In this document: in pieces, positions 2,241 to 23,794 of the stretch
Position numbering within the stretch: the stretch's first letter is position 1
Layout of the letters: each line of letters begins with the position of its first letter
Notes under the pieces: generated by a model
The model's input: only the letters and a program-made list of their open reading frames with translations
Database searches by the model: none
Told to the model about the DNA's origin: nothing
Translations under genes and position numbers: made by a program
DNA from: Mycolicibacterium smegmatis
GTDB lineage: Bacteria > Actinomycetota > Actinomycetes > Mycobacteriales > Mycobacteriaceae
Assembly: GCF_001457595.1 (NCBI RefSeq)
Contig: NZ_LN831039.1
Coordinates: forward strand, 4,920,001 to 4,952,000
DNA: 32,000 nt
Direction of reading: 5' to 3'

Positions 2241-2242
2241 CC

Positions 2243-3957: not shown

Positions 3958-4748
3958 TGCGTATCGGTTTCCTCGGTGCCGGGCGCATGGGCGCCCCCAT
4001 GGTGCAGCGGCTCACCGCGGCAGGACACGATGTCCACGCACTCGGGCGCACGGACGAGAAACGAACCGCGGTAGCCGGATTGGGAGCCACACCCGTGGCC
4101 GCCGCCGCGGACGCCGTGCGCGACGCGGACGTCGTGATCGTATGCGTGTTCACCGACGAGCAGGTGCGCACTCTCTGCACGGATACTCTGCTCGACGCCA
4201 TGGCGCCGGGTGCGGCGCTGGTGCTGCACACGACGGGAAGCCCGCGCACGGCCGAGGACATCGCCGCACGCGCTGTGGACCGCGGCGTCGCGGTCGTCGA
4301 TGCGCCGGTCAGCGGAGGGCCGCACGACATCGCGGCCGGGTCGGTGACGGTGTTCGCCGGCGGCGACGCCGACGTCGTCGAGCGCGTCCGCCCCGCACTG
4401 GTCGCCTATGCCGAACCGCTCCTGCACGTCGGGCCGCTCGGCTCGGGCCAGCGCGTCAAGCTCGTCAACAACACGATGTTCGCGGCCCAGATCGGTGTGG
4501 TGGCCGAAGGCGTGCGACTGGCCCGTGAACTCGGTGTCGATGAGCCGACGGTGCTGTCAGCCCTCACGCACGGCAGCGCCGCGAGCCGTGCGCTGAGCGG
4601 GATCGCGGCGACCGGATCGGCCGAGGACTTCAAGGTCAGGGTCGGTGAGTTCATCGGCAAGGACGTCGCGGTGGTCCGCGCGACAGCCGCGGATCTCGGC
4701 GCCGACCTCGGGCTCCTTGACCATGCCGTCGACGCGGCACTGCGGTGA
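3957..4748 (+). CDS. Second, paralogous NAD(P)-dependent beta-hydroxyacid dehydrogenase-like oxidoreductase, 263 aa
   Basis: It has MRIGFLGAGRMGAPMV, DAPVSGG and KLVNN. A TGATG overlap joins it to the upstream paralogue. Confidence 0.8.
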   Translation: MRIGFLGAGRMGAPMVQRLTAAGHDVHALGRTDEKRTAVAGLGATPVAAAADAVRDADVVIVCVFTDEQVRTLCTDTLLDAMAPGAALVLHTTGSPRTAEDIAARAVDRGVAVVDAPVSGGPHDIAAGSVTVFAGGDADVVERVRPALVAYAEPLLHVGPLGSGQRVKLVNNTMFAAQIGVVAEGVRLARELGVDEPTVLSALTHGSAASRALSGIAATGSAEDFKVRVGEFIGKDVAVVRATAADLGADLGLLDHAVDAALR

Positions 4749-4812
4749 TCTGATTCCTGTCCGTGACCCGGCATTTCGTGCTTTTCGACCACTGCCGGAC
4801 GCATTACTGTTA

Positions 4813-4842
4813 GCGTTACAGTTCATTCGGTTCACGTAACGC
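4813..4842. promoter_or_regulatory. Operator-like dyad GCGTTAC-N16-GTAACGC upstream of P450-1
   Basis: Perfect 7-nt inverted arms are separated by exactly 16 nt, in an AT-rich patch about 47 nt upstream of ATG 4889. The same architecture recurs at 14081-14108 and 27200-27228. Confidence 0.4.
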
Positions 4843-4888
4843 CTCGCACAGCACTTCGGGCACCGGCCCCGCCGCGGAGGAGGAGCAT

Positions 4889-6091
4889 ATGACCACGCCC
4901 CAGATGATCTTCGATCCGTTCTCCGAGGAGTACTTCGAGAACCCCTTCGACATCTACCGTCAGATGCGCGACGACGCCCCGCTGTACTACGACTCCGAGC
5001 AGGACTTCTACGCACTGTCCCGCCACGAGGACGTCGCGGCCGCGCTGAAGGACCACGAGGCGTTCTCGTCGTCACGGGGATGCGACCTGGCGATGGTGAA
5101 GGGCGACGAACCGCCGCAGAAGTCGATCATCTTCATGGATCCGCCCGAGCACCGGCACATGCGCAGCCTGCTCAACAAGGCGTTCACACCGCGCGCGGTG
5201 CAGGCGCAACGCGACACCGTCGTCGAACAGGTCGAGCACTATCTCGGGCAGATCGACTCCGACGAGTTCGACGTCGTGCAGGATTTCTCGGGCCCGTTCC
5301 CGGTCGAGGTGATCACCCGCATGGCCGGCGTCGAGCCGGAATACCGCCAGCAGGTGCGGCACTGGATCGACACGAGCCTTTCGCGCGAACCCGGCCAGGT
5401 CGCATACTCCGAGGCCGGGATGAAGGCCAACATCGACACCGCGATGTACTACTACTCGCTGGTGCAGAAGCGCCGCGAGAACCCGCAGGACGACATGATC
5501 AGCCGGTTGATCGCCGCCGAGATCCCCGGTGAGAACGGGGAGATGCGCCGTCTCGACGACGTCGAGATCACCGGCTTCGCAACCCTTCTGGGTGGCGCGG
5601 GCGCCGAGACCGTCACCAAGCTGATCGGCACGGCAATGGTGACGTTCGCGAAGTTCCCCGACCAGTGGCAGAAGCTGCTCGACGACCGCAGCAAGGTGCC
5701 CGCGGCGGTCGAGGAACTCCTGAGGTACGAGGGACCCGTGCAGTACAACGTGCGCTACACGCTCAAGGAGGCGCGCGTGCCCAGCGGCACCATCCCGGCA
5801 GGCAAGCCGGTGTTCCTGCTCAAGGCGTCAGCCAACCGCGACGAGCGGGCGTGGACCGATCCCGACGTCTTCGACATCGACCGCGACCGCACCGAGGCGC
5901 AGAACCTCGGCCTCGGTTACGGCATCCACAGCTGCCTCGGCGCCGCACTCGCGCGTCTGGAGAGCACGATCGCCCTGGAGCGGCTGCTCGACTTCATGCC
6001 GCGCTACGAGGTCAAATGGGACGGCCTGCAGCGCGTCCACATGCAGAACGTCGCAGGCTACTCCCATGTGCCGGTGAAGGTGTTGCGTTGA
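4889..6091 (+). CDS. Cytochrome P450 (P450-1), 400 aa
   Basis: Strong SD (GGAGGAGGAG) lies before the ATG. It has the I-helix GGAGAETV, ExxR (ELLRYE) and the heme loop LGYGIHSCLGAALA. Confidence 0.95.
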   Translation: MTTPQMIFDPFSEEYFENPFDIYRQMRDDAPLYYDSEQDFYALSRHEDVAAALKDHEAFSSSRGCDLAMVKGDEPPQKSIIFMDPPEHRHMRSLLNKAFTPRAVQAQRDTVVEQVEHYLGQIDSDEFDVVQDFSGPFPVEVITRMAGVEPEYRQQVRHWIDTSLSREPGQVAYSEAGMKANIDTAMYYYSLVQKRRENPQDDMISRLIAAEIPGENGEMRRLDDVEITGFATLLGGAGAETVTKLIGTAMVTFAKFPDQWQKLLDDRSKVPAAVEELLRYEGPVQYNVRYTLKEARVPSGTIPAGKPVFLLKASANRDERAWTDPDVFDIDRDRTEAQNLGLGYGIHSCLGAALARLESTIALERLLDFMPRYEVKWDGLQRVHMQNVAGYSHVPVKVLR

Positions 6092-6291
6092 TGACCAAGA
6101 AGATTCACGTCGACTTGGGGCTGTGTGAGAGCAACGGCGTCTGCATGGGCGTCATCCCCGAGGTGTTCGACCTCGACGAGGAGGACTACCTGCACGTGCT
6201 CTCCGACGAGGTGACCCCGGAAAACGAGGCCCGCGTGCGCGACGCCGTGCGGCAGTGCCCGCGCCAGGCCATCTCGATCGACGAAGAGTGA
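6091..6291 (+). CDS. Single-cluster (3Fe-4S type) ferredoxin, 66 aa
   Basis: MTKKIHVDLGLCESNGVC...QCPRQAI matches CxxNxxC(x)nCP. The ATG shares one nucleotide with the P450 stop (TGATG). Confidence 0.9.
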   Translation: MTKKIHVDLGLCESNGVCMGVIPEVFDLDEEDYLHVLSDEVTPENEARVRDAVRQCPRQAISIDEE

Positions 6292-6313
6292 TCCCGCGCT
6301 AACGCGCGATCAC
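6288..6313. terminator. Hairpin spanning the stops of two convergent genes; candidate bidirectional terminator
   Basis: gtgatcccgcg-ctaa-cgcgcgatcac forms an 11-bp stem with one mismatch. On the + strand it is followed by cgTTTTg. Only 7 nt separate the two convergent stop codons. Confidence 0.45.
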
Positions 6314-7210
6314 CGTTTTGCCGAAACCCTCGATGGTCTCGAGCGCGTGCGCCAGGCTGTCCCCCGGGATCGTGACGTGCAGCCAGGTCACGCCGAGCGC
6401 GGCGAGTTGGTCGACGCCCGCGAGGTAGGCGTCGGCGTCGAAATCGTCGTCACCGGGGTTGCCGCCGTCGAAGTTGGTGAACACGATGTCCACCGTCGAC
6501 GGGTCGCGTTGGGCGGCATCGAGTTTGGTCCGCAGATCAGCGATCCCGGCTGTGAGCCTCTCGATCGAGTCGATCGCGGCGGTACCCGCGGTCTGCGCAA
6601 GCCCGGGCGGTGCGGCGAACGGGCACCAGCCGTCGCCGTGCCTGGCGACGCGCGCCCTGGCGGCCGCGGTGTTGCCGCCGATCCAGATCGGTGGCGGGTT
6701 CACCGGGCGGGGGTGCGCGGTGACGCCCCTGGCACTGAAATGCTTTCCCTGGTAGGTGAAGTCATCGGTGGTCCAGATGCCGCGGATGACCTCGAGGGAT
6801 TCATCGAACAACTCGGTGCGTTCGTCGAACGTCACCCCGAGTGCGGCGAACTCGCGTTTGAGGTAACCCACCCCGACCGCGAGCGTGAACCGCCCGCCCG
6901 AGAGCAGGTCGAGTGTCGCACCGGATTTGGCCACCACGAACGGGTTGCGGTACGGCAGCACCACGATGTTGGGTACCAGCCGCAGGGTGGTGGTCTGCGC
7001 GGCGGCGTACGCCATCGCCACGAACGGGTCGACGGCGTCGTGCCCACCGGCATCGAGCCAACGTTGTGACGGCGCCGGGTGATCGGTGAAGCCGAACCCG
7101 TCGAAACCGGCGGCCTCGGCCGCTGCTGCCACCGCCGCCACGCCGGACCCGCTGACGAGGTCCGGGTGGTAGGGGTGGCTGTGCATCGGGTGTGTGATGC
7201 TGTAGCGCAC
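6299..7210 (-). CDS. LLM-class (luciferase-like) F420-dependent oxidoreductase family protein, 303 aa
   Basis: GTG start. TIM-barrel LLM signatures are present (..FGFTDHP.., LLSGGRFTLAVGVGY, PIWIGG). The family assignment is by eye. Confidence 0.8.
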   Translation of the reverse strand: MRYSITHPMHSHPYHPDLVSGSGVAAVAAAAEAAGFDGFGFTDHPAPSQRWLDAGGHDAVDPFVAMAYAAAQTTTLRLVPNIVVLPYRNPFVVAKSGATLDLLSGGRFTLAVGVGYLKREFAALGVTFDERTELFDESLEVIRGIWTTDDFTYQGKHFSARGVTAHPRPVNPPPIWIGGNTAAARARVARHGDGWCPFAAPPGLAQTAGTAAIDSIERLTAGIADLRTKLDAAQRDPSTVDIVFTNFDGGNPGDDDFDADAYLAGVDQLAALGVTWLHVTIPGDSLAHALETIEGFGKTVIAR

Positions 7211-7225
7211 GGCCGGGCCCCTGGC

Positions 7226-7516
7226 TCAGGACGAAAAGCCCGAGAGGATGACCCCGTTGCAGTCGGCGACACTCTGCCGGATCTTGGCGGCGGCCTGGTA
7301 GGCGTCGGAGAAGTACCACTCGCGGGCGGCCTCGACCGACGGGAACTCCAGCACCACGGTCTGGGTGCCGTGCCAGGTGCCCTCGACCACCTCGGCCTTC
7401 TGGTCGACGGCGAGGATCGTCGCGCCTCCCATGGTGGGACCCGCGGCCTTCGCGTACTCGGCCATGCCTGCCGGGTCCTTGATGTCCTCGGTGATGATCA
7501 CATAGCCCTTGGGCAC
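7226..7516 (-). CDS. DUF1330 family protein, 96 aa
   Basis: GTG start with AAGGAG about 10 nt upstream. MPKGYVIITEDIKDP...FPSVEAAREWYFSDAYQ is typical of DUF1330. Confidence 0.75.
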   Translation of the reverse strand: MPKGYVIITEDIKDPAGMAEYAKAAGPTMGGATILAVDQKAEVVEGTWHGTQTVVLEFPSVEAAREWYFSDAYQAAAKIRQSVADCNGVILSGFSS

Positions 7517-7558
7517 AGTTCGAGTCTCCTTGTCGGTGAAGCGGATTGAGGTGGTGGA

Positions 7559-7747
7559 TCAGAGTTTGTGGATCGCGCTCTCGGGACAGCAGTCGATGGC
7601 TTCCCGGACTGCGGCCTCGTGCTCGGCGGGGACCTCCCCGGCAGCGGCCACCGCCCAGCCATCGTCGGACAGTTCGAAGACCTCCGGGCACAGTGTCAGG
7701 CACATGCCGTGGCCTGCGCACCGGTCCTCGTCGACGGCGACCTTCAT
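7559..7747 (-). CDS. Single-cluster (3Fe-4S type) ferredoxin, 62 aa
   Basis: MKVAVDEDRCAGHGMC...DCCPESAI matches CxxHxxC(x)nCP. The ATG overlaps the P450-2 stop (ATGA). Confidence 0.9.
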   Translation of the reverse strand: MKVAVDEDRCAGHGMCLTLCPEVFELSDDGWAVAAAGEVPAEHEAAVREAIDCCPESAIHKL

Positions 7748-9021
7748 TTCACATCGAACTCCAGGTGCAGGTGGGTGAGCCCACGCAGGATGAACGTCGG
7801 GATGTACTTGTAGTCCCGATTGGCCGCCGGACCGTGGTGTTCCTCGGAGATCCGGATGTCGGTGGTGCGGTCGAGCAGTCGCTCCAGTCCGACGCGGGTC
7901 TCGGCACGGGCCAGCGGCGCGCCCGGGCAGCTGTGGATGCCACGGCCGAACGCCAGATGCTGGCGGGCGTTCTTGCGGGCCGGGTCGAAATCGTCGGGGT
8001 TCTCGAACCGGCGCGGGTCCCGGTTGGCCGCGCCGTTGACCACCATGACGGTACGGCCCGAGGGCAAGTCCTTGTCCCCCACCGTGACCGGGCAACGGGA
8101 GAGCCGGAAATCGCCCTTGACCGGACTCTCGTGGCGCAGCGCCTCTTCGATGAAGTTCGGCAACAGGCTGCGGTCCTCGCGCACCATCTTCTGCACGTCC
8201 GGCCGGTCTCCCAGTACCTTGAGCGCGGTGCCGAGCAGTCGGACCGTGGTCTCCTGACCCGCCGAGAAGACATTGGTGGCCACCCGTGCGACGTCGCCGG
8301 GGCTCGGGGTGGTGCCGTCTGGGAACAGTGCGGTGGCCATCCCCGTGAGGATGTCCTCGCGAGGGTTACTGCGCCGGTCCTCGATGTACGCCTCGAACTG
8401 GCCGTAGAGGAATTCCAGCGGGCTGTGCGACAGCGACTCGTCACCGGTGCTGCCCACGCCGCCGCCGGAGTTCTGCGAGATGCCGTCGACGAACGCGTTG
8501 CGGTCCTCGGCGGGGATGCCCAGCAGGTCCGCGATCACCAGCAGGGTGAACGGGCTGGCGAAGCCCTTGATGAACTCGCCCTTGCCCGGCGCCAGGAAAT
8601 CGTCGAGCACCTCGTCGGCCAGCTGCCACATCGCGTCCTCGTTCTCCTTGAGGCGCTTGGGCGTGATCAGCCGCATCATCAGCGAGCGGTGGTTGGTGTG
8701 CACCGGCGGGTCCAGGGTGGGCAGCTGATCGCTGAACGGCAGCTCGTCGCGGTGCTTCTCGATGAGTTCGGCGACGTCGTCGCGGCCCTCCAGCGGCACC
8801 GGGAAGCCGGGGAACGGCCCGGTGACCGAGGTGCATGAGGAGAAGCTCTTCTCGTCGTTGTAGACCGAGACAGCCTCCTCCCAGCCGGTCACCATGGTCA
8901 CCCCGTAGTGATCCTCGGACTGCACGGGGCACTTGTCCCGCAACGCGTTGAAATACGGGTACGGGTCGTCGACCAGCCGGGGGTCCTTGAACCAGTCGAT
9001 ACCGGCGGGATCGATCGCCAT
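7744..9021 (-). CDS. Cytochrome P450 (P450-2), 425 aa
   Basis: It starts at MAIDPAGIDWF. It has the I-helix SAGQETTV, ExxR (EALRHE) and the heme loop FGRGIHSCPGAPLA. The upstream 58 codons of the listed ORF lie in AT-rich promoter DNA. Confidence 0.92.
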   Translation of the reverse strand: MAIDPAGIDWFKDPRLVDDPYPYFNALRDKCPVQSEDHYGVTMVTGWEEAVSVYNDEKSFSSCTSVTGPFPGFPVPLEGRDDVAELIEKHRDELPFSDQLPTLDPPVHTNHRSLMMRLITPKRLKENEDAMWQLADEVLDDFLAPGKGEFIKGFASPFTLLVIADLLGIPAEDRNAFVDGISQNSGGGVGSTGDESLSHSPLEFLYGQFEAYIEDRRSNPREDILTGMATALFPDGTTPSPGDVARVATNVFSAGQETTVRLLGTALKVLGDRPDVQKMVREDRSLLPNFIEEALRHESPVKGDFRLSRCPVTVGDKDLPSGRTVMVVNGAANRDPRRFENPDDFDPARKNARQHLAFGRGIHSCPGAPLARAETRVGLERLLDRTTDIRISEEHHGPAANRDYKYIPTFILRGLTHLHLEFDVK

Positions 9022-9254: not shown

Positions 9255-10034
9255 ATGACATCCGACATCGCGACACCGGCCCCGACCGCCGGCGAACCCG
9301 ACCTGGCCCGTCCCTGGGCACCGCACCGCCGCAAGGCCTACGTCGCCCTCACTGCGATGACCGGTTTCGCCTTCACGATCGCGGTCGTCGGGGTCGGCAC
9401 CGGTCTGCTGCCGCCCACCTTCACCGTCGACGTCATCGCCAACCTGGCGTTCGGCCTGCCGGTGATCGTGCTGCCGCTGGTCTACTTCTGGACCGGCCGG
9501 GGTGAGCAGCGCTCGCGTCTGCAACGCGCCTCGGAGCTGACGATGATCTACCTGCCCTACACCGCGGGCAGCCAACTCGGCTACGAGACCATCTTTCTGA
9601 TCGGCCATCCGATGAACTGGTGGACACCGACCACCGACCCGGGCTGGAAGTGGCTCTGGTGGCAGTACGGCCTGGCCGACACCCGCTACACCAGTGGCAA
9701 CGCCTGGATCTTCGGGCTGGAACTGGTCGGCGTGGTGACCGGCACGCTGCTGTTCATCGTGTGGATCCGCTTGATGCGCAGCGATTTACCGGTCGAGTCC
9801 CGGATCAAGAGCCTGTGGCTCGCCTTCACCGGATGCGCGATGCTGATCAGCAGCACCGCGGTGTACTTCCTGTCCGAGGTGCGCGCCGGGTTCGACGACA
9901 TCGGTCAGGGGGCCTTCGGGCTCTGGTTCAAATTCATCGCCGAGAACGTGCCGTTCATGATCCTGCCGTTCTTCGCCCTGATCGCGATGTATCGCCAGAT
10001 CGACCATCTCAGCCGCCGGGCAGGCCCTCGGTAG
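9255..10034 (+). CDS. Polytopic membrane protein resembling the EBP / EXPERA family (emopamil-binding protein, sterol delta8-delta7 isomerase-like), 259 aa
   Basis: It has several hydrophobic segments. LWWQYGLADTRY, GLELVG and YFLSEVRAGF...GLWFKF parallel human EBP LWKEYAKGDSRY, CMETIT and YFLTEHRDGF...LYFWFYF (human sequence recalled from memory). The start is uncertain (ATG 9255 preferred; 9174 possible). Confidence 0.7.
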   Translation: MTSDIATPAPTAGEPDLARPWAPHRRKAYVALTAMTGFAFTIAVVGVGTGLLPPTFTVDVIANLAFGLPVIVLPLVYFWTGRGEQRSRLQRASELTMIYLPYTAGSQLGYETIFLIGHPMNWWTPTTDPGWKWLWWQYGLADTRYTSGNAWIFGLELVGVVTGTLLFIVWIRLMRSDLPVESRIKSLWLAFTGCAMLISSTAVYFLSEVRAGFDDIGQGAFGLWFKFIAENVPFMILPFFALIAMYRQIDHLSRRAGPR

Positions 10035-10056
10035 CTCACACCGGGGTAGCTCACAC
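10030..10056 (+). repeat. Tandem direct repeat GGTAGCTCACAC x2 (15-nt period)
   Basis: Copies lie at 10030-10041 and 10045-10056. The first copy contains the TAG stop of the EBP-like gene. The repeat lies 65-90 nt upstream of the TetR-A start. Confidence 0.5.
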
Positions 10057-10120
10057 AGACCGACAGCGGCGGCTTGGTTGGACACTGGTCAGCTGTGCCG
10101 ATGCGCGGTACGGTGCGCAG

Positions 10121-10780
10121 GTGGTCGCATCACCGCGCAACACCGAAGCTGACCGGGGTCAGCGCCGGGCGACCTTCCAGCGCGCCAACTCCCACACCAC
10201 CAAGCAGATGCTGGTCCATGCGGCCATGGCGTTGTGGCGGACCAACGGCTACGCCAACACCACGGTGGCCGAGATCTGCCGGGGCGCCGGGGTCTCCAAG
10301 GCGTTGTTCTACTTCTACTTCCCGCGTAAGGAAGACGTGCTCTTCGAGGTGGGCGTGATGTCCACCCGCTCAGCCCAGCGCACCATCGCGAAGCTGCTGG
10401 CCGACGACTACGACGTCATGACCGTCGTCGGCGCCGCACTGACCGCCCTGGAACGCTCGATGAGCAGCAATCCGCGCGAGTTGGTCATCGAGACCATCCT
10501 GGAGGGGTACCGGCACGAGCACCGACTGCTGGCCACGGGAGAGAACCGTCCCGATCTGGACGGCGGCATGTTCACCACCCTGTTCGCCCGCGCGGTGGCC
10601 GACGGCAAACTTCCCGCCGGCACCGACACCGACCGCCTGGTCCATCTGGCCATGATGATGGTCAGCGAGGGCGCCCGGCATTGGGCCGCAGGCGCTTTCG
10701 GCGCCCGTTCCTTCGCCGACGTCGTCGCCTCCGACATCGCCACCCTGATCGCAGGCAGCACCGGACGAAGGAGACCGTGA
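10121..10780 (+). CDS. TetR/AcrR family transcriptional regulator (TetR-A), about 219 aa
   Basis: The HTH region is TKQMLVHAAMALWRTNGYANTTVAEICRGAGVSKALFYFYFPRKEDVL. GTG 10121 is the first start in frame that keeps helix 1, but the start is uncertain. The stop overlaps the next ATG (TGATG). Confidence 0.75.
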   Translation: MVASPRNTEADRGQRRATFQRANSHTTKQMLVHAAMALWRTNGYANTTVAEICRGAGVSKALFYFYFPRKEDVLFEVGVMSTRSAQRTIAKLLADDYDVMTVVGAALTALERSMSSNPRELVIETILEGYRHEHRLLATGENRPDLDGGMFTTLFARAVADGKLPAGTDTDRLVHLAMMMVSEGARHWAAGAFGARSFADVVASDIATLIAGSTGRRRP

Positions 10781-12081
10781 TGGCATGGGATTTCGAGACC
10801 GACCCGGAGTTCGCCGAACTCCTGGACTGGGTGGACACCTTCGTCCGCGACGAAGTCGAGCCGCTGGACCTGGTGTGGCCGCATCTGCAGTTCACGCCTC
10901 TGAACGAGGTACGCCGGCAGGTGGTGGACCCGCTCAAGGAGCAGGTGCGCCGAAAAGGCCTGTGGGCCACCCATCTCGGCCCCGAACTCGGTGGTCAGGG
11001 ATACGGGCAGCTGAAATTGGCGCTGCTCAACGAGATCCTGGGCCGGTCGCAGTGGGCGCCCATCGTGTTCGGCTGCCAGGCACCCGATACCGGCAACGCC
11101 GAGATCATCGCGCACTACGGCACCGAGGAGCAGAAGCAACGCTATCTGCGGCCCCTGCTCGACGGTGAGGTGTTCTCCTGTTATTCGATGACCGAGCCGC
11201 ACGCGGGCGCGGACCCGACGCTGTTCACCACGCGCGCCGTCCGCGACGGGGACGACTGGGTGATCAACGGCTGGAAGTTCTTCTCCTCCAACGCCGCCAC
11301 CGCGTCGTTCCTCATCGTCATGGTCGTCACCAACCCCGATGTCAGCGCCTATCAGGGCATGTCGATGTTCCTGGTGCCCACCGACACCCCCGGCGTCGAG
11401 ATCGTGCGCAACGTCGGCCTGTACGGCGAGCGCGACAACGAGGGATCGCACGCGCTGATCCACTACGACAACGTGCGGGTACCCGCCGAAGCTCTGCTGG
11501 GCGGTGAGGGGCAGGCGTTCGTCATCGCCCAGACCCGCTTGGGCGGCGGGCGAATCCACCACGCCATGCGCACGATCGGCCTCGCACGCAAGGCGCTCGA
11601 CATGATGTGCGAACGCGCGCTGAGCCGCAAGACACAGGGAAGCCGTCTGTCCGACAAGCAGTTCGTGCAGGGCTACATCGCCGACTCGTATGCGCAACTG
11701 CTGCAGTTCCGGCTGATGGTGCTCTACACCGCGTGGGAGATCGACAAGTACAACGACTACAAGTTGGTCCGCAAGGACATCGCCGCGGTCAAGGTCGTCA
11801 TGCCGACAGTCCTGCACGACATCGCATGGCGCGCGATGCAGGTGCACGGCGCCCTCGGTGTCACCAACGAAATGCCGTTTCTCGGGATGGTCACAGGCGC
11901 GGCCGTCATGGGCCTGGCCGACGGCCCCACCGAAGTGCACAAGACCACCGTGGCCAAGCAGGTGCTGCGCGACCACGAGGCCACCGAGGACACCTGGCCG
12001 ACCGAATGGATACCCCGCAAGCGCGAGGAGGCGCGGGCCAAACTCGCCGACTACCTGGACAACGAGGTGGGCAATCTGTGA
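10780..12081 (+). CDS. Acyl-CoA dehydrogenase family protein of the FadE2 / ACAD10-11 C-terminal-domain type, 433 aa
   Basis: It has MAWDFETDPEF..., SMTEPHAGADPT and TRLGGGRIHHAMR, which I recall as characteristic of this subfamily. It is translationally coupled on both sides. Confidence 0.88.
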   Translation: MAWDFETDPEFAELLDWVDTFVRDEVEPLDLVWPHLQFTPLNEVRRQVVDPLKEQVRRKGLWATHLGPELGGQGYGQLKLALLNEILGRSQWAPIVFGCQAPDTGNAEIIAHYGTEEQKQRYLRPLLDGEVFSCYSMTEPHAGADPTLFTTRAVRDGDDWVINGWKFFSSNAATASFLIVMVVTNPDVSAYQGMSMFLVPTDTPGVEIVRNVGLYGERDNEGSHALIHYDNVRVPAEALLGGEGQAFVIAQTRLGGGRIHHAMRTIGLARKALDMMCERALSRKTQGSRLSDKQFVQGYIADSYAQLLQFRLMVLYTAWEIDKYNDYKLVRKDIAAVKVVMPTVLHDIAWRAMQVHGALGVTNEMPFLGMVTGAAVMGLADGPTEVHKTTVAKQVLRDHEATEDTWPTEWIPRKREEARAKLADYLDNEVGNL

Positions 12082-13103
12082 GCGCACCGGACATCGACAC
12101 CCCGCGCCTCGCCGAGTGGATGGACGGCGCGGGGCTGCCGGGCAAGGGTGAGCCGCTGACCGCGCGCTTCCTGTCCGGCGGTACGCAGAACGTCATCTAC
12201 GAACTGCGCCGCGGCGACGAGCGCTGCGTGCTGCGCATGCCACCCCCGGGCGCGCCGCCCGACCGCGACAAGGGCATCCTGCGCGAGTGGCGCATCATCG
12301 CCGCGCTCGACGGCACCGACGTGCCGCACACCGAGGCCGTCGCCATGTGCGAGGACCCGAGCGTGCTCGGTCGGCCGTTCTACCTGATGGGGTTTGTCGA
12401 GGGGTGGTCCCCCATGGATCGGCACGGTGTGTGGCCCGAACCTTTCAACAGCGACCTGGGTACCCGCCCCGGCCTGAGTTATCAACTGGCCGAGGGCATC
12501 GCGCTGCTGTCCAAGGTCGACTGGCGCGAGCGGGGGCTGGCCGACCTGGGACGCCCCGAAGGTTTTCACGACCGGCAGGTCGATCGCTGGATCGCATTCC
12601 TCGAACGGATAAAACGCCGCGAGCTACCCGGCTTGAAGGTCGCCACCGACTGGCTGCGGGCGCACAAACCGCTCGACTACATCCCCGGCCTCATGCACGG
12701 CGACTACCAGTTCGCCAACGTGATGTACCGGCACGGCGCCCCCGCCACACTGGCCGCCATCGTCGACTGGGAGATGGGCACCGTCGGTGACCCCAAACTC
12801 GACCTCGCCTGGATGGTGCAGAGTTGGCCGACCGGCGAAGACACCGGCGGAATGGATTACGTCGACATGCGTGGCATGCCCGCACGTGACGACGTCGTCG
12901 CCCACTACGCCGAGGTGTCGGGCCGTCAGGTCGACGATCTGGACTACTACCTGGTGTTGGCCAAGTGGAAGCTCGCGATCGTGCTGGAGCAGGGTTTCCA
13001 GCGTGCGGGCGACGACGAGAAGCTTCTTGCGTTCGGACCGGTGGTGACAGGCCTGATGGCCTCGGCGGCCGAACTGGCCGAATCGACCGACTACCGGGGC
13101 TGA
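12078..13103 (+). CDS. Phosphotransferase (APH/choline-kinase fold) family protein of the ACAD10-11 N-terminal kinase type, 341 aa
   Basis: The GTG start overlaps the ACAD stop (GTGA). It has the catalytic loop LMHGDYQFANVMY (HGDxxxxN) and the metal-binding IVDWE. Confidence 0.87.
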   Translation: MSAPDIDTPRLAEWMDGAGLPGKGEPLTARFLSGGTQNVIYELRRGDERCVLRMPPPGAPPDRDKGILREWRIIAALDGTDVPHTEAVAMCEDPSVLGRPFYLMGFVEGWSPMDRHGVWPEPFNSDLGTRPGLSYQLAEGIALLSKVDWRERGLADLGRPEGFHDRQVDRWIAFLERIKRRELPGLKVATDWLRAHKPLDYIPGLMHGDYQFANVMYRHGAPATLAAIVDWEMGTVGDPKLDLAWMVQSWPTGEDTGGMDYVDMRGMPARDDVVAHYAEVSGRQVDDLDYYLVLAKWKLAIVLEQGFQRAGDDEKLLAFGPVVTGLMASAAELAESTDYRG

Positions 13104-13104: not shown

Positions 13105-14079
13105 GTGCGCGCAGCCGTCTGCCCCCGGTACGGGCCACCCGAGGTAGTCCGCGTCGAGGAGTTGCCTGCGCCTGAACTCGGGCCCGATCAGGTGCGGGTG
13201 CGTGTCGGTGCTGCCGCGGTGAACTTTCCCGACGTGTTGCTCGTGGCCGACAGGTACCAGGTGACCGTGCCCGTGCCGTTCGTCCCTGGCAGTGAATTCT
13301 CCGGGGTGGTGACCGAGATCGCCGACGGTGTCACGGATTTCGTAGTCGGCGACCGGGTGGTCGGTACCGCAATGCACGGCGCGTTCGCCGAGGAGGTGTG
13401 TGTCGACGCATCCTGTCTGCAGCGCGCCGTCGAGCGCCTCGGCGACCGTGGCGCCGCCGCGTCCGGCGTCGCGCACCGCACCGCGTTCCACGCGCTGCGG
13501 TCGGTCGCCCGGGTCTCCACGGGCGACGACGTTGTCGTGCTTGGCGCGGGCGGCGGCGTCGGCCTGGCCGCGGTGCAGCTCGCCGCGGCACTCGGCGCCC
13601 GGGTGACCGCGGTGGCGTCGTCAACCGAAAAACTCGATGCCGCAGCACGATACGGTGCACACCACCTCGTCGACCACACAGCCGGTTCACTCCGCGCGGC
13701 ACTGCGCGACGCCGTTCCCGGAGGGGCCGACGCGGTGCTCGACCCGGTCGGCGGCGATCTCTCCGAACCCGCGTTGCGCGCGTTGCGCCGCGGCGGGCGG
13801 TTCGTCACCATCGGCTTCGCGTCAGGCGCCATCCCCCGGATACCACTGAACCTCGTGCTGGTGAAGGGCGTGCAGATCCTGGGCTTCGCGTTCCAGGACG
13901 TGCCGCCGGAGGAATTCGCGCGCAACGAATCCGAGCTCGGCGAACTGCTGGCGTCCGGCGCCGTGACGCCGCACATCGGTGCGGTCTATCCCCTCGCCGA
14001 GGTCGCTGCCGCGCTGCGGCATGTCGCCGAGGGACGCGCCGTGGGCAAGGTGGTCCTGGACGTCTCTGGCGTCCGATGA
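13105..14079 (+). CDS. MDR-superfamily NADPH:quinone oxidoreductase / enoyl reductase-like protein, 324 aa
   Basis: GTG start 1 nt after the upstream stop. It has VNFPDVL, PGSEFSGVV and the nucleotide motif VLGAGGGVGLAAVQLA. Confidence 0.87.
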   Translation: MRAAVCPRYGPPEVVRVEELPAPELGPDQVRVRVGAAAVNFPDVLLVADRYQVTVPVPFVPGSEFSGVVTEIADGVTDFVVGDRVVGTAMHGAFAEEVCVDASCLQRAVERLGDRGAAASGVAHRTAFHALRSVARVSTGDDVVVLGAGGGVGLAAVQLAAALGARVTAVASSTEKLDAAARYGAHHLVDHTAGSLRAALRDAVPGGADAVLDPVGGDLSEPALRALRRGGRFVTIGFASGAIPRIPLNLVLVKGVQILGFAFQDVPPEEFARNESELGELLASGAVTPHIGAVYPLAEVAAALRHVAEGRAVGKVVLDVSGVR

Positions 14080-14080: not shown

Positions 14081-14108
14081 GTTTACAGTCGTCGCAGTGA
14101 GCGTAAAC
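14081..14108. promoter_or_regulatory. Operator-like dyad GTTTAC-N16-GTAAAC upstream of P450-3
   Basis: Six-nt inverted arms are separated by exactly 16 nt, and the spacer begins AGT as at 4813-4842. It lies directly after the stop of the MDR gene and about 100 nt upstream of ATG 14206. Confidence 0.4.
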
Positions 14109-14205
14109 TCACGCATCCTTGATCTGCGTCACCAGACCTGCTAAGCAAGTGCTCAGAACAAGACGGTCAGTTCAGAAAATGCCGCCCTTCGACGACGGAG
14201 TCCCG

Positions 14206-15396
14206 ATGGCCAAGCCCAGCACCAGTGCCACACCAGACCTGTACTACGACCCGTACAGCGTGCAGCTCAACATGGAACCGCACGAGGTGTTCGCGCGGAT
14301 CCGCGAAGAGGCGCCGCTGTACTACAACGAGCAGCACGACTTCTACGCGCTGAGCCGGTACCACGACGTCAACAAGGCCGTGATCGACCACGAGACGTTC
14401 ATCTCGGGCCGCGGCGCGCTGCTCGAGCTCATCAAGAGCGGCATGGAGATTCCGCCCGGCACCCTGATTTTCGAGGATCCGCCGATCCACAACATCCACC
14501 GCAACCTGCTGTCGCGGATGTTCACGCCGCGCAAGGTGCTCGCGCTCGAGCCCCAGATCCGCGAATTCACCACCCGCTGCCTGGACGCGGTGGCCGGCTC
14601 GGACACGTTCGACTTCGTCAACGATCTCGGCGAGCAGATGCCCATGCGCGTCATCGGCATGCTGCTGGGCATCCCCGAGGACCGCCAGCGCGCCATCACC
14701 GACCACGGCGAGCAGACGCTGCAGGGCACGACAGTCGATTCCCTGGCCACCGGTGAGGTGTTCGCGGAATTCATCGACTGGCGCGCCGAGAACCCGTCGG
14801 ACGACATCATGACCGACCTGCTCAACGCCGAGTTCGAGGACGAGACCGGCACGGTGCGCAAGCTGCGCCGAGACGAGTTGCTGCTGTACCTGACCGTGAT
14901 CGCCACCGCGGGTTCGGAAACCACGACGCGCGCGCTGGGCTGGGCGGGCAAGACGCTGGCCGACCACCCCGATCAGCGCCGCGACCTCGTCGAGAACCCG
15001 GCGCTGATCCCGCAGGCCATCGAGGAACTGCTGCGCTGGGAACCGCCTGCCCTGCAGATCGCCCGCTACGTCACGCGCGACGTCGAGTACTACGGCAAGA
15101 CCGTGCCCGCGGGGTCGGCGATGCTCATGCTGGTCGGGGCGGCCAACCGCGACCACAGGCGTTTCCCGCCGAACGGCGACGTGTTCGATATCCACCGGGA
15201 GCAGTTCTCGCACATGACTTTTGGTGCGGGCACGCACTTCTGCATGGGCAACGCGCTGGCCCGGCTCGAACTGCGTGTCGCACTCGAGGAAATACTCAAG
15301 CGCTTCCCCGAGTGGGAGGTCGACTGGGACAACGCCAGGCCCTCGGAGACCGCCGCGGTACGCGGCTGGGCGGCCATGCCAACGTTCGTGCGCTGA
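14206..15396 (+). CDS. Cytochrome P450 (P450-3, paralogue of P450-1), 396 aa
   Basis: GGAG lies 5 nt before ATG 14206; alternative starts are 14179 and 14119. It has the I-helix ATAGSETT, ExxR (ELLRWE) and the heme loop FGAGTHFCMGNALA. The N-terminus APLYYNEQHDFYALSRYHDV parallels P450-1 APLYYDSEQDFYALSRHEDV. Confidence 0.92.
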   Translation: MAKPSTSATPDLYYDPYSVQLNMEPHEVFARIREEAPLYYNEQHDFYALSRYHDVNKAVIDHETFISGRGALLELIKSGMEIPPGTLIFEDPPIHNIHRNLLSRMFTPRKVLALEPQIREFTTRCLDAVAGSDTFDFVNDLGEQMPMRVIGMLLGIPEDRQRAITDHGEQTLQGTTVDSLATGEVFAEFIDWRAENPSDDIMTDLLNAEFEDETGTVRKLRRDELLLYLTVIATAGSETTTRALGWAGKTLADHPDQRRDLVENPALIPQAIEELLRWEPPALQIARYVTRDVEYYGKTVPAGSAMLMLVGAANRDHRRFPPNGDVFDIHREQFSHMTFGAGTHFCMGNALARLELRVALEEILKRFPEWEVDWDNARPSETAAVRGWAAMPTFVR

Positions 15397-15409: not shown

Positions 15410-15913
15410 TCAGCTGGCGGTGATCAGGTCGGCGGGCACCGAGCGGCTGAGCATGGTGCCGGTGCGGAACGCCTCGGTGCTGCCGACGGAGCCGGCGTCG
15501 GGGTGATTGGCCGCGGTGAGCGCCTGGGCCTTGAACGCGCGTGCGGCAGCGGACAGTTCGTGATGGGCGGGACAGACGCGCAGGTCTGACGGACACTCGT
15601 CGCCCCACAGCGTGACCTCGGTGAGGCCCTGCTCCAGCGCGCCGAGCACACCGTGGCGCACACGCTTGTCGGTGTTGAACAGATCGGCCGCGACCGCGAC
15701 GGTCTGCGGGTGCGGACGGTCCTGCCACGACCTGAGCACGCTCTCGAGGTCCATGGCCTCGACACCGAGGATCTCCAAGGGGCGCACGTTCTCGTCGCGG
15801 TCGATCAGCACCGTGACGTCCCAGCCGGCCATCACCCGGTCGACGAGCCAGCCTCCCGCGTACCGCACCGCGTCGATCACGCACGGGGCGACCACATCGA
15901 GTCGATACCTCAT
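15410..15913 (-). CDS. Hypothetical protein, 167 aa, translationally coupled to TetR-B
   Basis: The ATG overlaps the TetR-B stop (ATGA). Codon usage is consistent with its neighbours. I recognise no domain (MRYRLDVVAPCVIDAVRYAGGWLVDR...). Confidence 0.6.
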   Translation of the reverse strand: MRYRLDVVAPCVIDAVRYAGGWLVDRVMAGWDVTVLIDRDENVRPLEILGVEAMDLESVLRSWQDRPHPQTVAVAADLFNTDKRVRHGVLGALEQGLTEVTLWGDECPSDLRVCPAHHELSAAARAFKAQALTAANHPDAGSVGSTEAFRTGTMLSRSVPADLITAS

Positions 15914-16527
15914 GTCAGCTCGATCTCGCGGGCCAACATCTCGGCGTATCCCTTGAATACGTCCTGCAGCGGCAGTGAGGGATCGAGTAACCATGAGGTC
16001 TCCATTCCGTTGACGAAGGCGAGAATTTCCACGGCCTTGATGACCGGGTCGAAGTCCGGGCGATAGCGGCCACTGTGCTGGCCGCGGCGAATGATGTCCG
16101 CGACGATGTCGCGCGCATCCTGCTGACGTTTCAGCAAACGATCGTGCAGTGGTGCATCCGGCTGGATGTTCTCCACCAGCAGCACCGTGAACGTACCGAC
16201 CAACTCGGGTGCCCGGACGAACCGTTCGGCCACCCGCTTGATCTCGTCGGCAAGGTCACCGGACCGGTCGGCGTGTGCATCGTCGTCGAGATCCCTGGCG
16301 TCGAGCACCGCGTTGAGGAGGTGCTCCTTGGATTCGAAATGATGCAGCAGACCGGCCGTGGTGACCCCGGCCTCCTTGGCGATCTGAGCGAGTGAGGTGT
16401 TGCGCCACCCGTTGCGGGCCAGCAGCCTCTCGGCGACCGAAAGGATGCGCTGCCTGCGGTCTTCGCCCTTGGCGAGCAGGGTCTCGTAGGGTCTGGCAGC
16501 CTCGGCCTGCCCCTGGGGTGGCGTCAC
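15910..16527 (-). CDS. TetR/AcrR family transcriptional regulator (TetR-B), 205 aa
   Basis: GTG start with GAAGGAG 5 nt upstream. The HTH region is RRQRILSVAERLLARNGWRNTSLAQIAKEAGVTTAGLLHHFESKEHLL. Confidence 0.85.
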   Translation of the reverse strand: MTPPQGQAEAARPYETLLAKGEDRRQRILSVAERLLARNGWRNTSLAQIAKEAGVTTAGLLHHFESKEHLLNAVLDARDLDDDAHADRSGDLADEIKRVAERFVRAPELVGTFTVLLVENIQPDAPLHDRLLKRQQDARDIVADIIRRGQHSGRYRPDFDPVIKAVEILAFVNGMETSWLLDPSLPLQDVFKGYAEMLAREIELT

Positions 16528-16643: not shown

Positions 16644-17792
16644 CTACAGGCCCAGCGACTTCGCGATGATGACTTTCATGACCTCGCTGGTACCCGCGTA
16701 GATCCGGGCGACGCGGGCGTCGGTGTACAGCCTGGCGATGGGGTACTCCATCATGTAGCCGTACCCGCCGAACAACTGCAGGCAACGATCGACCACGCGC
16801 GCCTGCATCTCGGTGCAGAACAGTTTGACGCGCGCCGCGTCGGCCCCCGACAGCTCGCCGTCGACGTGCAGCGCCACCGCGCGGTCGAGCATGGCCTGGG
16901 CTGCCTCGACCTCCGCCGAACACGCCGCCAGCTCGAACTTGGTGTTCTGGAAGGACGCCACGGGTGTGCCGAATGCCTTGCGGGTCTTGGTGTAATCGAT
17001 CGCCGCGTCGATCGCCGAGCGGGCCTGGGCCACCGAACCGACGGCGACCGTGAGGCGCTCCTGGGCCAGGTTGTGGCCGAGGTAGCTGAACGCCTCGCCC
17101 TCCTCCCCCAGCACGTTGGCCACCGGCACCCGCACGTCGGTGAACGACAGCTCCGCGGTGTCCTGCACCTTGCAGCCCATCTTCTCCAGTTCACGGCCGC
17201 GGCTGAAGCCCGCCATGCCGTCCTCGACCACCAGCAGCGTCAGCCCCTTTCGGCGGTTATCCGGATCGGTCGACGTACGGGCCACCACGACAACCAGATC
17301 CGCCTGGATACCACCGGTGATGAAGGTCTTGGCGCCGTTGAGGACGTAGTGGTCCCCGTCCCGCACCGCGGTGGTGCGCACGCCCGCGAGATCCGATCCG
17401 GTCCCCGGCTCGGTCATCGCGATCGCGGTCAGCAGTGTGCCCGCCGCCAGACCGGGGAACCACCGCTGCCGCTGCTCGGTGTTGGCGTAGTGCAGGAAGT
17501 ACGGCAGGATCACCTCGAGCTGGGTGCGGACCGTGGACAGCGTGACCAGGGCCCTGGCGGCCTCCTCCTGAAGCACGACGTTGTAGCGGTAGTCGGGAAT
17601 GCCTGCGCCGCCGTACTCCTCGGGGATGGCCATGCCGAGCATGCCCAGTTCACCCATCTGCTTGAACACGTCGCGCGGCATGCGTCCGGCCTTCTCCCAT
17701 TCGGGATAGGCCGGGACGACTTCCTTCTCGATGAAATCCCGCGCCAGCGTGCGGAATGCCTCGTGATCCTCGGTGAACAGATTCCGCTGCAT
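16644..17792 (-). CDS. Acyl-CoA dehydrogenase, 382 aa
   Basis: It has MTEPGTGSDLAG, NGAKTFITGG and a C-terminal IYAGTSEVMK. AGGAGG lies upstream of the ATG. Confidence 0.93.
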   Translation of the reverse strand: MQRNLFTEDHEAFRTLARDFIEKEVVPAYPEWEKAGRMPRDVFKQMGELGMLGMAIPEEYGGAGIPDYRYNVVLQEEAARALVTLSTVRTQLEVILPYFLHYANTEQRQRWFPGLAAGTLLTAIAMTEPGTGSDLAGVRTTAVRDGDHYVLNGAKTFITGGIQADLVVVVARTSTDPDNRRKGLTLLVVEDGMAGFSRGRELEKMGCKVQDTAELSFTDVRVPVANVLGEEGEAFSYLGHNLAQERLTVAVGSVAQARSAIDAAIDYTKTRKAFGTPVASFQNTKFELAACSAEVEAAQAMLDRAVALHVDGELSGADAARVKLFCTEMQARVVDRCLQLFGGYGYMMEYPIARLYTDARVARIYAGTSEVMKVIIAKSLGL

Positions 17793-17804
17793 CAGCCGGC
17801 CCTC

Positions 17805-18953
17805 CTAGCCGAGAAGTTCGACGATCGTGGCGTTGGCGGTGCCACCGCCCTCGCACATGGTCTGTAAGCCGTACTGAATCCCGTTGTCGCGCATGTGGTT
17901 GATCATGCGGGTCAGCAGCACCGCGCCGGATGCGCCCAACGGGTGCCCGAGCGCGATGGCGCCGCCGAGCGGGTTGAGCTTGGCCGGGTCGGCGCCGGTC
18001 TCGGCCTGCCATGCCAGCGGCACGGGCGCGAACGCCTCGTTGACCTCGAAGACGCCGATCTCGTCGAGCCGGACCCCGGCCTTGTGCAGCACCTTCTCGG
18101 TGGCCGGGATGGGGCCGGTGAGCATGAGCACCGGGTCGGCGCCCGCGACCGCGCCCGCGCGGTACCGCACGATGGGTGAAAGACCCATCGCGACGGCATT
18201 TTCCGCGGTCATCACCAGCAGGGCGGCCGCGCCGTCGGAGATCTGTGACGAATTGCCCGCGTGGATGACGCCGTCGTCTTTGAACGCGGGCTTGAGGTTG
18301 GCGAGTTTGTCGACCGTGGTCCCCCGGCGCACGCCCTCGTCGGCGACCACGGGGTCGCCGTCGTCGGGGAACACCGTGATCATCTGGGTCTCGAAGGCGC
18401 CGCTGTCCTGCGCGGCCGCGGCGCGTTCGTGCGACGCCACCGAGTATTCGTCGAGTTGCGTGCGGGTGAAGCCCCACTTCTGCGCGATCATCTCGGCCGA
18501 GATGCCCTGGTTGAACGAGAAGTCGCGATACCGGTCGATCACCTTGGGCCCGTATGGCATCCCGGTGGCGCGGGCGGCGCCGAGCGGTACGCGGCTCATC
18601 ACCTCGACACCACCGGCGACCACGACGTCCTGCTGGCCCGACATCACGGCCTGCACCGCGAAGTCCAGCGCCTGCTGGCTCGATCCGCAGGCCCGGTTGA
18701 CGGTGGTTCCGGGTATGTGTTCGGGCCACCCCGCGGCCAGCACCGCGAACCGGCCGATGTTGCTCGACTGGTCGCCCACCTGCGATACGCAGCCCCAGAT
18801 GACGTCGTCGATGATGTCGGGGCCGATGCCGGCCTTCTCCACGAGCGCATTGAGGACCAGTCCCGACAGATCGGCGGCATGCATGCCGGACAGGCCGCCG
18901 TTGCGCTTGCCGACGGGCGTGCGCACGGCTTCGACGATGACGGTTTCACGCAT
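17805..18953 (-). CDS. Acetyl-CoA C-acyltransferase (thiolase), 382 aa
   Basis: MRETVIVEAVRTPVGK. It has the nucleophile loop VNRACGSSQQA, GHPLGASGA and CEGGGTANA. The ATG lies 8 nt inside the upstream CoA-transferase gene. Confidence 0.93.
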   Translation of the reverse strand: MRETVIVEAVRTPVGKRNGGLSGMHAADLSGLVLNALVEKAGIGPDIIDDVIWGCVSQVGDQSSNIGRFAVLAAGWPEHIPGTTVNRACGSSQQALDFAVQAVMSGQQDVVVAGGVEVMSRVPLGAARATGMPYGPKVIDRYRDFSFNQGISAEMIAQKWGFTRTQLDEYSVASHERAAAAQDSGAFETQMITVFPDDGDPVVADEGVRRGTTVDKLANLKPAFKDDGVIHAGNSSQISDGAAALLVMTAENAVAMGLSPIVRYRAGAVAGADPVLMLTGPIPATEKVLHKAGVRLDEIGVFEVNEAFAPVPLAWQAETGADPAKLNPLGGAIALGHPLGASGAVLLTRMINHMRDNGIQYGLQTMCEGGGTANATIVELLG

Positions 18954-20969: not shown

Positions 20970-20985
20970 CGAAGCGAAGATCTCC

Positions 20986-22194: not shown

Positions 22195-22217
22195 GTGCTC
22201 CTGGTTCTCTTGTCGAT

Positions 22218-23740: not shown

Positions 23741-23794
23741 GGACGAGAGTTGAAGCTGACAGCAGCAGCGTGAGCGCCGAGAGGAGAGCCGTCC

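Follow-up and report, generated by a model that had tools for sequence, protein, structure and literature searches.

A putative split ACAD10/ACAD11-type kinase and flavoenzyme pair for 4-hydroxyacyl-CoA phospho-elimination in Mycolicibacterium smegmatis

Known 4-hydroxyacyl-CoA pathways and the gene pair of M. smegmatis

The conversion of 4-hydroxyacyl-CoAs by a kinase, which phosphorylates the hydroxyl group, and a flavoenzyme with an acyl-CoA dehydrogenase (ACAD) fold, which eliminates the phosphate to give an enoyl-CoA, was shown for LvaA(B)/LvaC of Pseudomonas putida, for a protein pair of Burkholderia pseudomallei and for ACAD10 and ACAD11 of mammals (PMC12440821, PMC11342911, PMC6692424). 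The pathway is thus already known from Pseudomonas, Burkholderia and mammals, and split bacterial pairs were demonstrated biochemically; the initial annotation of the locus described here had given an account of this chemistry that agrees with the three sources. The subject of this analysis is a pair of overlapping genes in a 32,000-nucleotide stretch of Mycolicibacterium smegmatis (assembly GCF_001457595.1, contig NZ_LN831039.1, positions 4,920,001 to 4,952,000), which is referred to as the window. In public databases their products are named just "acyl-CoA dehydrogenase family protein" and "phosphotransferase family protein", and a literature search found no study of these genes in mycobacteria. 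Judged by sequence, they probably encode a 4-hydroxyacyl-CoA kinase and its partner flavoenzyme, which would carry out an ATP-dependent phosphorylation followed by an FAD-dependent phosphate elimination to a 2-enoyl-CoA. The genes and their junction are as follows.

10780..12081, plus strand: predicted flavoenzyme of the ACAD10/ACAD11/LvaC type (FadE2 type) with ACAD fold, 433 amino acids (Pfam and PDB matches)
12078..13103, plus strand: predicted small-molecule kinase of the aminoglycoside phosphotransferase (APH) fold, 341 amino acids, ACAD10/11-N-like family, HGDYQFAN clade (Pfam, PDB and AlphaFold)
12078..12081, plus strand: GTGA in which the stop codon of the ACAD gene and the start codon of the kinase gene overlap, kept as CTGTGA or CTATGA in orthologous loci
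12064..12069, plus strand: GAGGTG, Shine-Dalgarno-like sequence for the kinase gene, located within the 3' end of the ACAD coding sequence

The lva pathway of P. putida follows the same two-step logic, leading from 4-hydroxyvaleryl-CoA via 4-phosphovaleryl-CoA to pentenoyl-CoA/3-hydroxyvaleryl-CoA (PMC12440821, PMC11342911, PMC6692424). The catalytic Asp is also present in LvaC, as are the active-site motifs that are exclusive to ACAD10/11 homologues (PMC12440821), and LvaA is about 29% identical to the kinase domains of ACAD10/11 (PMC11342911), the window kinase being about equally distant. The operons differ, however, as that of P. putida contains the short-chain dehydrogenase/reductase (SDR) LvaD, the synthetase LvaE, transporters and the sigma-54 regulator LvaR. 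None of these is present in the window operon, which has a medium-chain dehydrogenase/reductase (MDR) and a TetR regulator and in which, unlike in lva, the ACAD gene comes first and the kinase gene follows with an overlap of 4 nt. The gene calls gave no extra small LvaB-like gene within the operon, whose overlapping gene ends could not accommodate one. On this comparison, the window locus is not an lva operon, while its core enzymes are predicted to work like LvaA/LvaC.

In B. pseudomallei, kinase (Q63VL0) and ACAD (Q63VL1) are separate proteins as in the window, and their consecutive accessions suggest adjacent genes. Examined as bacterial orthologues of LvaA/LvaC, each of them replaces the matching domain of ACAD10 in vitro, converting 4-hydroxyhexanoyl-CoA to hexenoyl-CoA (Paquay et al., 2024, PMC11342911). 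Compared by published motifs, the Burkholderia ACAD sequence FNCNAPDTGN...QGR.LGPG resembles CQAPDTGN...QTRLGGG of the window ACAD. The host is proteobacterial, and by description its kinase is up to 51% identical to ACAD10/11, versus 28-31% for the window kinase. In mammalian ACAD10/11 the two halves are fused, whereas the pair described here consists of separate polypeptides and has no HAD domain.

Sequence features of the flavoenzyme and the kinase

The window ACAD carries the three Pfam domains Acyl-CoA_dh_N (1.5e-13), Acyl-CoA_dh_M (1.5e-20) and Acyl-CoA_dh_1 (3.5e-29). Its top matches in the PDB were mouse ACAD11 (8v3u, 1.1e-80), human ACAD11 (2wbi, 7e-80) and 4hr3 (4e-79), whereas the best conventional ACAD among the solved structures reached 3.5e-44. 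The identity to the ACAD domain of ACAD11 is 43-44%. A protein identical to the window ACAD is encoded on GCA_029221935.1. An NCBIfam scan of the protein yielded matches far under the cutoff throughout, and this collection holds no model for the ACAD10/11/LvaC subfamily.

As hallmarks of ACAD10/11 and LvaC, a catalytic Asp (D753) replacing Glu and the residues R626, H634 and R637, which bind the 4-phosphate from one helix, were described (Rashan et al., PMC12440821). In ACAD11, the mutation of R626, H634, R637 or D753 abolishes phosphate elimination (PMC12440821). A CxAPDTGN motif with a proline in the E-helix is listed for ACAD10 and ACAD11 and for the LvaC proteins of Pseudomonas and Burkholderia (PMC11342911 supplement), and in ACAD11-type enzymes this proline leads to an enlarged substrate cavity (PMC10925408). 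In the window ACAD, the following features were found.

11074..11097, plus strand: CQAPDTGN, residues 99-106, specific to ACAD10/11/LvaC and including P102, the equivalent of the E-helix proline P463 of ACAD11
11530..11571, plus strand: QTRLGGGRIHHAMR, residues 251-264, bearing R253, H261 and R264 (alignment to ACAD11)
11920..11922, plus strand: codon of D381, the predicted catalytic Asp in LADGPTEVH, corresponding to D753 of ACAD11 and standing in place of the Glu of classical ACADs
11980..12078, plus strand: C-terminal tail of about 33 amino acids (WPtEhlP..r.aAraK.A.ylE.EvGNL), clade-specific in the orthologue alignment

R253, H261 and R264 align to R626, H634 and R637 of ACAD11, the phosphate-binding triad with its "HCMR" motif, which reads HAMR here, and R258 aligns to the general ACAD Arg, which is R631 in ACAD11. 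Compared with ACAD11 (8v3u, 8v3v, 2wbi), the residues D753, R626, H634, R637, R631 and P463 are therefore all kept, and 8v3v is a D-to-N mutant that differs solely at the position aligned to D381. Within the orthologue set, none of 81 sequences deviates at R253, R258, H261 or R264, H260 and M263 are likewise unchanged across 80 orthologues, and all 79 sequences that are complete carry D381. Neither R253, H261 and R264 nor CQAPDTGN occur in two conventional ACADs encoded elsewhere in the window (16644-17792 and 20986-22176, minus strand). By its sequence, the protein clearly belongs to the ACAD10/11/LvaC type, every feature of the subfamily that was examined being present.

The alignments to ACAD11 and to 4hr3 (415 amino acids) stop ahead of the C-terminal tail. 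This tail is retained even in loci without an adjacent kinase gene and may act as a docking element for the kinase.

The kinase matches the Pfam family APH (PF01636) with 3e-28. Among the solved structures, it is closest to 9o56 (3e-44) and 3dxp (3e-39), followed by the kinase domain of ACAD11 (3e-25). The AlphaFold model (pLDDT 95.2) was assigned to 3dxp by Foldseek with an E-value of 1.7e-24 and TM scores of 0.82/0.85. The conserved residues of this family were located as follows.

12234-12236, plus strand: R53, the beta3 Arg, conserved in the family alignment
12282-12287, plus strand: R69-E70, the alphaC pair, conserved in the family alignment, its Arg corresponding to a second modelled CoA contact of ACAD11
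12570..12590, plus strand: DRQVDRW segment with R166, corresponding to R176 of ACAD11, a modelled CoA contact
12696..12719, plus strand: catalytic loop HGDYQFAN with D209 and N214, corresponding to D220 and N225 of ACAD11
12765..12773, plus strand: metal-binding motif DWE, D230-W231-E232

In an alignment of 66 family members, D209, N214, DWE, R53, R69-E70 and R166 are invariant or nearly so. D220, N225, R176, DWE and the alphaC Arg-Glu pair of the ACAD11 kinase domain are kept in the window kinase; for the alphaC Arg, the assignment was made by its position beside the Glu, as the count along the PDB chain gives 83-84 versus the published R86. The catalytic loop itself deviates, with FAN in place of LDN and Gln211 at a position where ACAD10/11, 3dxp and 9o56 carry Lys or Arg (H-x-D-x-(K/R)-L-(D/N)-N). 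Due to Gln211 and an identity of just 28-31% to the characterised relatives, the kinase is placed by its sequence in a sister clade with the signature HGDYQFAN, inside the ACAD10/11-N-like family and outside the ACAD10/11 clade proper. The signature was found in 63 of 67 syntenic kinases. In the structural comparison, the neighbours following 3dxp and Rv3168 (3ats) were the entries 9fsg and 9ft5 of a 25-hydroxysteroid kinase (TM 0.68-0.71).

The ACAD open reading frame (ORF) extends from the ATG at 10780 to the TGA at 12079-12081 and the kinase ORF from the GTG at 12078 to the TGA at 13101-13103, so that both share the GTGA sequence, which indicates a predicted translational coupling of the two genes. 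Some public annotations place the kinase start 14 codons downstream, cutting into the region homologous to 9o56 and 3dxp. Residues 5-14 of the kinase already align to these two structures, and GTG 12078 is the sole in-frame start between 12048 and these residues. For this reason, GTG 12078 was taken as the start codon. Further ORFs, antisense or in another frame, were regarded as the usual artefacts of high-GC sequences, and an Rfam search of the window gave no family match.

The coordinates and motifs of the initial annotation could all be retained (RIHHAMR at ACAD residues 258-264, HGDYQFAN at kinase residues 207-214, DWE at kinase residues 230-232), and the GTGA overlap it had reported between 10780-12081 and 12078-13103 is confirmed by the ORF ends. 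Its assignment of the ACAD to the FadE2/ACAD10-11 subfamily is borne out by the best PDB matches, which are ACAD11, and by the presence of all distinguishing residues. It had also counted the kinase among the ACAD10/11-type APH proteins. This stands for the family, of which 9o56, 3dxp and ACAD11 are the best relatives, but not for the ACAD10/11 subclade proper, from which the protein is separated by its 28-31% identity and Gln211.

In the proposed mechanism, the kinase would use ATP to phosphorylate the 4-hydroxyl group of a 4-hydroxyacyl-CoA. The resulting 4-phosphoacyl-CoA would be bound by the ACAD-fold enzyme, with its phosphate held by R253, H261 and R264. The phosphate would then be eliminated, D381 serving as the base and FAD undergoing transient redox chemistry as the cofactor, to give a 2-enoyl-CoA that could enter ordinary beta-oxidation. 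Candidate substrates would be 4-hydroxy acids, gamma-lactones, 4-oxo acids and lipid-peroxidation products.

Conservation of the gene neighbourhood

One genome per species was scanned with an ACAD alignment consisting of the window ACAD and mouse and human ACAD11. In total, 80 loci with ACADs of 64-90% identity were obtained from Mycobacterium, Nocardia, Rhodococcus, Frankia, Actinomadura, Amycolatopsis and many Acidimicrobiia, together with a few Dormiibacterota and Binatia and one deltaproteobacterial metagenome-assembled genome (MAG). A homologous kinase, searched by tblastn and hmmsearch, is encoded at a distance of up to 6 kb from the ACAD gene in 67-68 of the 80 loci. It is located directly downstream on the same strand in 51 loci, and in five it is divergent and immediately upstream of the ACAD gene. 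Almost all of the 51 directly downstream arrangements have the junction C(T/A)(G/A)TGA, including five with CTATGA, where ATG takes the place of GTG. This variant supports both the kinase start codon and the translational coupling. The split and coupled ACAD-kinase pair proposed by the initial annotation is accordingly found as a syntenic unit over the Actinomycetota with its overlap junction kept.

The genes around the pair were also as first annotated, with a TetR gene upstream and genes for an MDR reductase and then a cytochrome P450 downstream, each at the position given. The order of the unit is tetR-ACAD-kinase-MDR. The stop codon of tetR (10778-10780) overlaps the ATG of the ACAD gene by one base, the GTG start of the MDR gene (13105) is located one base past the kinase stop, and the P450 gene begins after a gap of 126 bp.

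13105..14079, plus strand: Zn-free MDR reductase of the quinone-oxidoreductase/enoyl-reductase type, 324 amino acids, conserved third gene of the module
14082..14109, plus strand: promoter-like TTTACA-16-TAAACT between the MDR and P450 genes (consensus match only)
14206..15396, plus strand: cytochrome P450, 396 amino acids, adjoining the module and not a conserved part of it (nearest solved structure CYP130, 2e-59)

The MDR gene co-occurs with the ACAD gene in 48 of the 80 loci, following immediately after the kinase gene in 20 and immediately after the ACAD gene in 10. In about ten loci of the Nocardia, Rhodococcus and Frankia type, an enoyl-CoA hydratase gene is inserted between kinase and MDR. 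Genes of acyl-CoA metabolism flank the pair throughout, and SDRs, luciferase-like oxidoreductases, conventional ACADs, TetRs, acyl-CoA synthetases and CoA-transferases also recur in its vicinity. The recurrent "SDR" cluster is loose, the SDR of the window (20220-20957) is merely 28-35% identical to it, and no LvaD analogue is proposed for this locus.

The MDR protein, which has the motifs AAVNFPD, PGSEF and GAGGGVG and is devoid of the zinc ligands that alcohol dehydrogenases carry, is similar to quinone oxidoreductases, acryloyl-CoA reductases and the enoyl-reductase domains of polyketide synthases. Its putative role is the reduction of a C=C bond to give a saturated kinase substrate, which is the weakest step of the model. 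In this supply step, the MDR would probably produce the kinase substrate by NADPH-dependent reduction, e.g., of a 4-hydroxy- or 4-oxo-2-enoyl-CoA.

The MDR, not the P450, is the conserved partner of the ACAD-kinase pair. By tblastn across the 80 loci, four from Mycolicibacterium have a close copy of the P450 gene (86-90% identical) downstream and in the same orientation, and the 90%-identity cluster of the protein takes in slow-growing mycobacteria, e.g., M. intracellulare. The promoter-like match ahead of the gene suggests a separate transcription unit. The P450 was rejected as a pathway member because of the synteny, its own promoter-like site and its separate distribution. The catabolism of P450-hydroxylated acyl chains, which the initial annotation had considered fitting, is not supported by these data, as the P450 does not travel with the pair.

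Upstream of the pair, the regulator gene and two sequence elements were annotated.

10121..10780, plus strand: TetR-family regulator, 219 amino acids, first gene of the operon (gene call and Pfam TetR_N, 9.6e-15)
10074..10098, plus strand: imperfect, operator-like palindrome TTGGTTGGACACTGGTCAGCTGTG upstream of tetR (alignment of 13 mycobacterial upstream regions)
10109..10114, plus strand: TACGGT, -10-like hexamer 6 nt ahead of the tetR GTG (10121), within a conserved T-A-n-n-G-T column block

In the 12 other mycobacterial orthologous loci, the site aligned to the palindrome reads TAGTTAGACAnnCGTCAACTAT, and 10074-10098 is a putative TetR binding site. The position of the hexamer suggests a leaderless, possibly autoregulated operon transcript from the tetR promoter, by which the ACAD-kinase operon would be under the control of TetR. 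By tblastn, the upstream TetR was found solely in mycobacterial loci, in most of which it is located directly 5' of the ACAD gene with 64-73% identity.

A direct repeat, GGTAGCTCACAC, is present in two copies four bases apart at 10031-10058 and spans the stop codon of the preceding gene (9255-10034). This gene is located directly upstream of the operon promoter and encodes a Trp-rich multi-pass membrane protein of 259 amino acids without Pfam or NCBIfam match, for which one of the 80 related loci gave a tblastn match. Convergent with the operon, a protein of 167 amino acids without Pfam match and a second TetR are encoded on the minus strand at 15410-16527. The same two genes follow the MDR or kinase gene in most mycobacterial loci as well as in Rhodococcus zopfii and an Actinomycetes MAG, and the module may be flanked by two TetR regulators.

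The remaining parts of the window (585-9021 and 16644-31323) form a dense catabolic island. Among its genes, two encode NAD-binding dehydrogenases, one an alpha/beta hydrolase and one a ChsH2/DUF35-like and thiolase-like protein. The island further comprises two more P450s, each with a small ferredoxin, an LLM (luciferase-like) oxidoreductase, a DUF1330 gene, a thiolase, a family III CoA-transferase, an SDR, two amidohydrolases, an enoyl-CoA hydratase, a fourth TetR and the alpha subunit of a Rieske oxygenase (24361-25704). Four further ACAD-like ORFs are located in it, and two neighbours among them (about 27695-29628) may together constitute a heteromeric ACAD of the steroid type.

Weighing of the proposed function and alternative explanations

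Several observations weigh against a 4-hydroxyacyl-CoA kinase with partner flavoenzyme. In the gene calls of the operon, an LvaB-like partner, an acyl-CoA synthetase, a lactonase and an LvaD-type SDR are all missing, which leaves the supply of the substrate without an explanation. No kinase was found within 6 kb in 12-13 of the 80 ACAD loci, four or five of which are incomplete. The remaining points concern the kinase, namely its low identity to the characterised relatives and the Gln211 described above. The corresponding catalytic-loop Lys (K216, HYDxK) was reported as essential in 9o56 from Caldalkalibacillus thermarum (preprint PMC13596139), and this closest solved relative is itself reported to be a 1-O-alkylglycerol kinase.

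A possible, though doubtful, extension of the proposed function is that ACAD, kinase and the Zn-free MDR as ene-reductase constitute a three-gene cassette. It would provide a complete route for 4-oxo- and 4-hydroxy-2-enoyl-CoAs, in which the MDR makes the kinase substrate, while the Gln-type kinase and the tailed ACAD would assemble into a complex of their own, whose substrate range would differ from that of LvaA/LvaC and ACAD10/11. Such a cassette, to which genes for an enoyl-CoA hydratase, an SDR and an acyl-CoA synthetase may often be added, may occur in Actinomycetota and in rearranged form in Bacillales, and may be fed by lipid-peroxidation products, e.g., 4-hydroxyalkenals, or by unsaturated gamma-lactones.

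It is unlikely that the same chemistry serves a bulky or branched hydroxylated CoA ester instead, e.g., a P450-hydroxylated side chain of a steroid or terpenoid. Such a substrate would suit the large cavity of ACAD11-type enzymes and the island in which the pair is embedded, with three P450s and ferredoxins, the ChsH2/DUF35-like and thiolase-like gene, the Rieske oxygenase, ACAD-like genes, the thiolase and the CoA-transferase. These P450- and steroid-type neighbours, however, are not kept with the pair beyond a few Mycolicibacterium species (tblastn), and the conserved neighbours are the MDR, enoyl-CoA hydratase, SDRs and acyl-CoA synthetase. The fold of the kinase also resembles that of the 25-hydroxysteroid kinase (9fsg; TM 0.68, phmmer 1.3e-9), but the identity is 20-22%, compared to 28-31% for the ACAD10/11-type kinases. 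According to the titles of the entries 9fsg and 9ft5, this enzyme of the APH fold phosphorylates the 25-hydroxyl group of a steroid. The phosphate of its product is then eliminated to give an alkene. The enzyme is not known to act on a CoA ester or to work with an ACAD, and the likeness is one of analogy only.

Rather improbable, and more so than a bulky CoA ester, is a function of the kinase as an acyl-CoA-activated lipid-alcohol kinase for 1-O-alkylglycerol or monoacylglycerol, with the ACAD as a separate dehydrogenase for bulky acyl-CoAs. A preprint from 2026 reports such an activity on 1-O-alkylglycerols for ACAD10 and several prokaryotic homologues, 9o56 among them (PMC13596139), and 9o56, the nearest solved relative of the window kinase (3e-44), phosphorylates chimyl alcohol in vitro (preprint PMC13596139). 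An ACAD for bulky acyl-CoAs would be in line with the cavity enlarged by the E-helix proline (PMC10925408), which is P102 here. Its invariant phosphate-binding triad and catalytic Asp, on the other hand, are sensible only for a phosphorylated acyl-CoA, the two genes are translationally coupled and syntenic, and the window kinase lacks the very Lys that is essential for the alkylglycerol activity.

Moreover, the kinase operons of C. thermarum and Virgibacillus halodenitrificans themselves hold an ACAD10/11-type ACAD and acyl-CoA genes. The C. thermarum operon with the 9o56 gene (L084, 2601-11449) encodes an ACAD of this type with QGRLGPGRIHHCMR and CSAPDTGN, which is 44% identical to the window ACAD, as well as two SDRs, an enoyl-CoA hydratase, a 4HBT thioesterase, a second ACAD and an MDR with 35% identity to that of the window. 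Its kinase is 31% identical to the window kinase and, unlike here, kinase and ACAD genes are separated by three genes. The locus of V. halodenitrificans (L086, 2926-12210) resembles it, with genes for an acyl-CoA synthetase and a 3-hydroxyacyl-CoA dehydrogenase in addition. The context of the 9o56-family kinases is thus acyl-CoA catabolism across phyla, which weakens the alkylglycerol explanation for the bacterial proteins.

In the Bacillales operons, a PF04029 gene (2-phosphosulfolactate-phosphatase-like) is located immediately after the 9o56-type kinase gene, as in C. thermarum, whereas the window has no such gene. In P. citronellolis, a phosphatase-family gene adjoins the lvaA homologue (PMC6692424).

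An antibiotic-resistance (aminoglycoside or macrolide) phosphotransferase that is encoded beside the ACAD by chance would be in line with the public label "phosphotransferase family protein"/"aminoglycoside phosphotransferase" and with weak matches to capreomycin phosphotransferase (8e-07 and 3.9e-4), but is hardly credible given the identities of 12-19% and TM scores of 0.5-0.7 to the structures of APH(2''), APH(3'), APH(4), APH(9), Cph and Mph, compared to 28% and 0.82-0.85 for 3dxp, the NCBIfam score of 28.9 versus a cutoff of 390, and the conserved coupling of kinase and ACAD.

For the 4-hydroxyacyl-CoA kinase and its partner flavoenzyme, the new aspects are modest and comprise an actinobacterial clade in which the kinase is divergent and the ACAD bears a tail, the conserved MDR partner and the acyl-CoA context of the 9o56 kinase. 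The recurring MDR points to a pathway step that has so far not been described. If the proposed function is true, the divergent kinase clade would join the dispute on whether the substrate of the ACAD10-type kinases is a 4-hydroxyacyl-CoA or an alkylglycerol, and the 4-hydroxyacyl-CoA phospho-elimination route would reach a second major bacterial phylum. The acyl-CoA operon that holds the gene of the crystallised 9o56 kinase, with its ACAD10/11-type ACAD, bears on this dispute as well. With this, a specific and testable function is proposed for vaguely annotated genes of a model mycobacterium that is amenable to genetics, genes which many other Actinomycetota also have.

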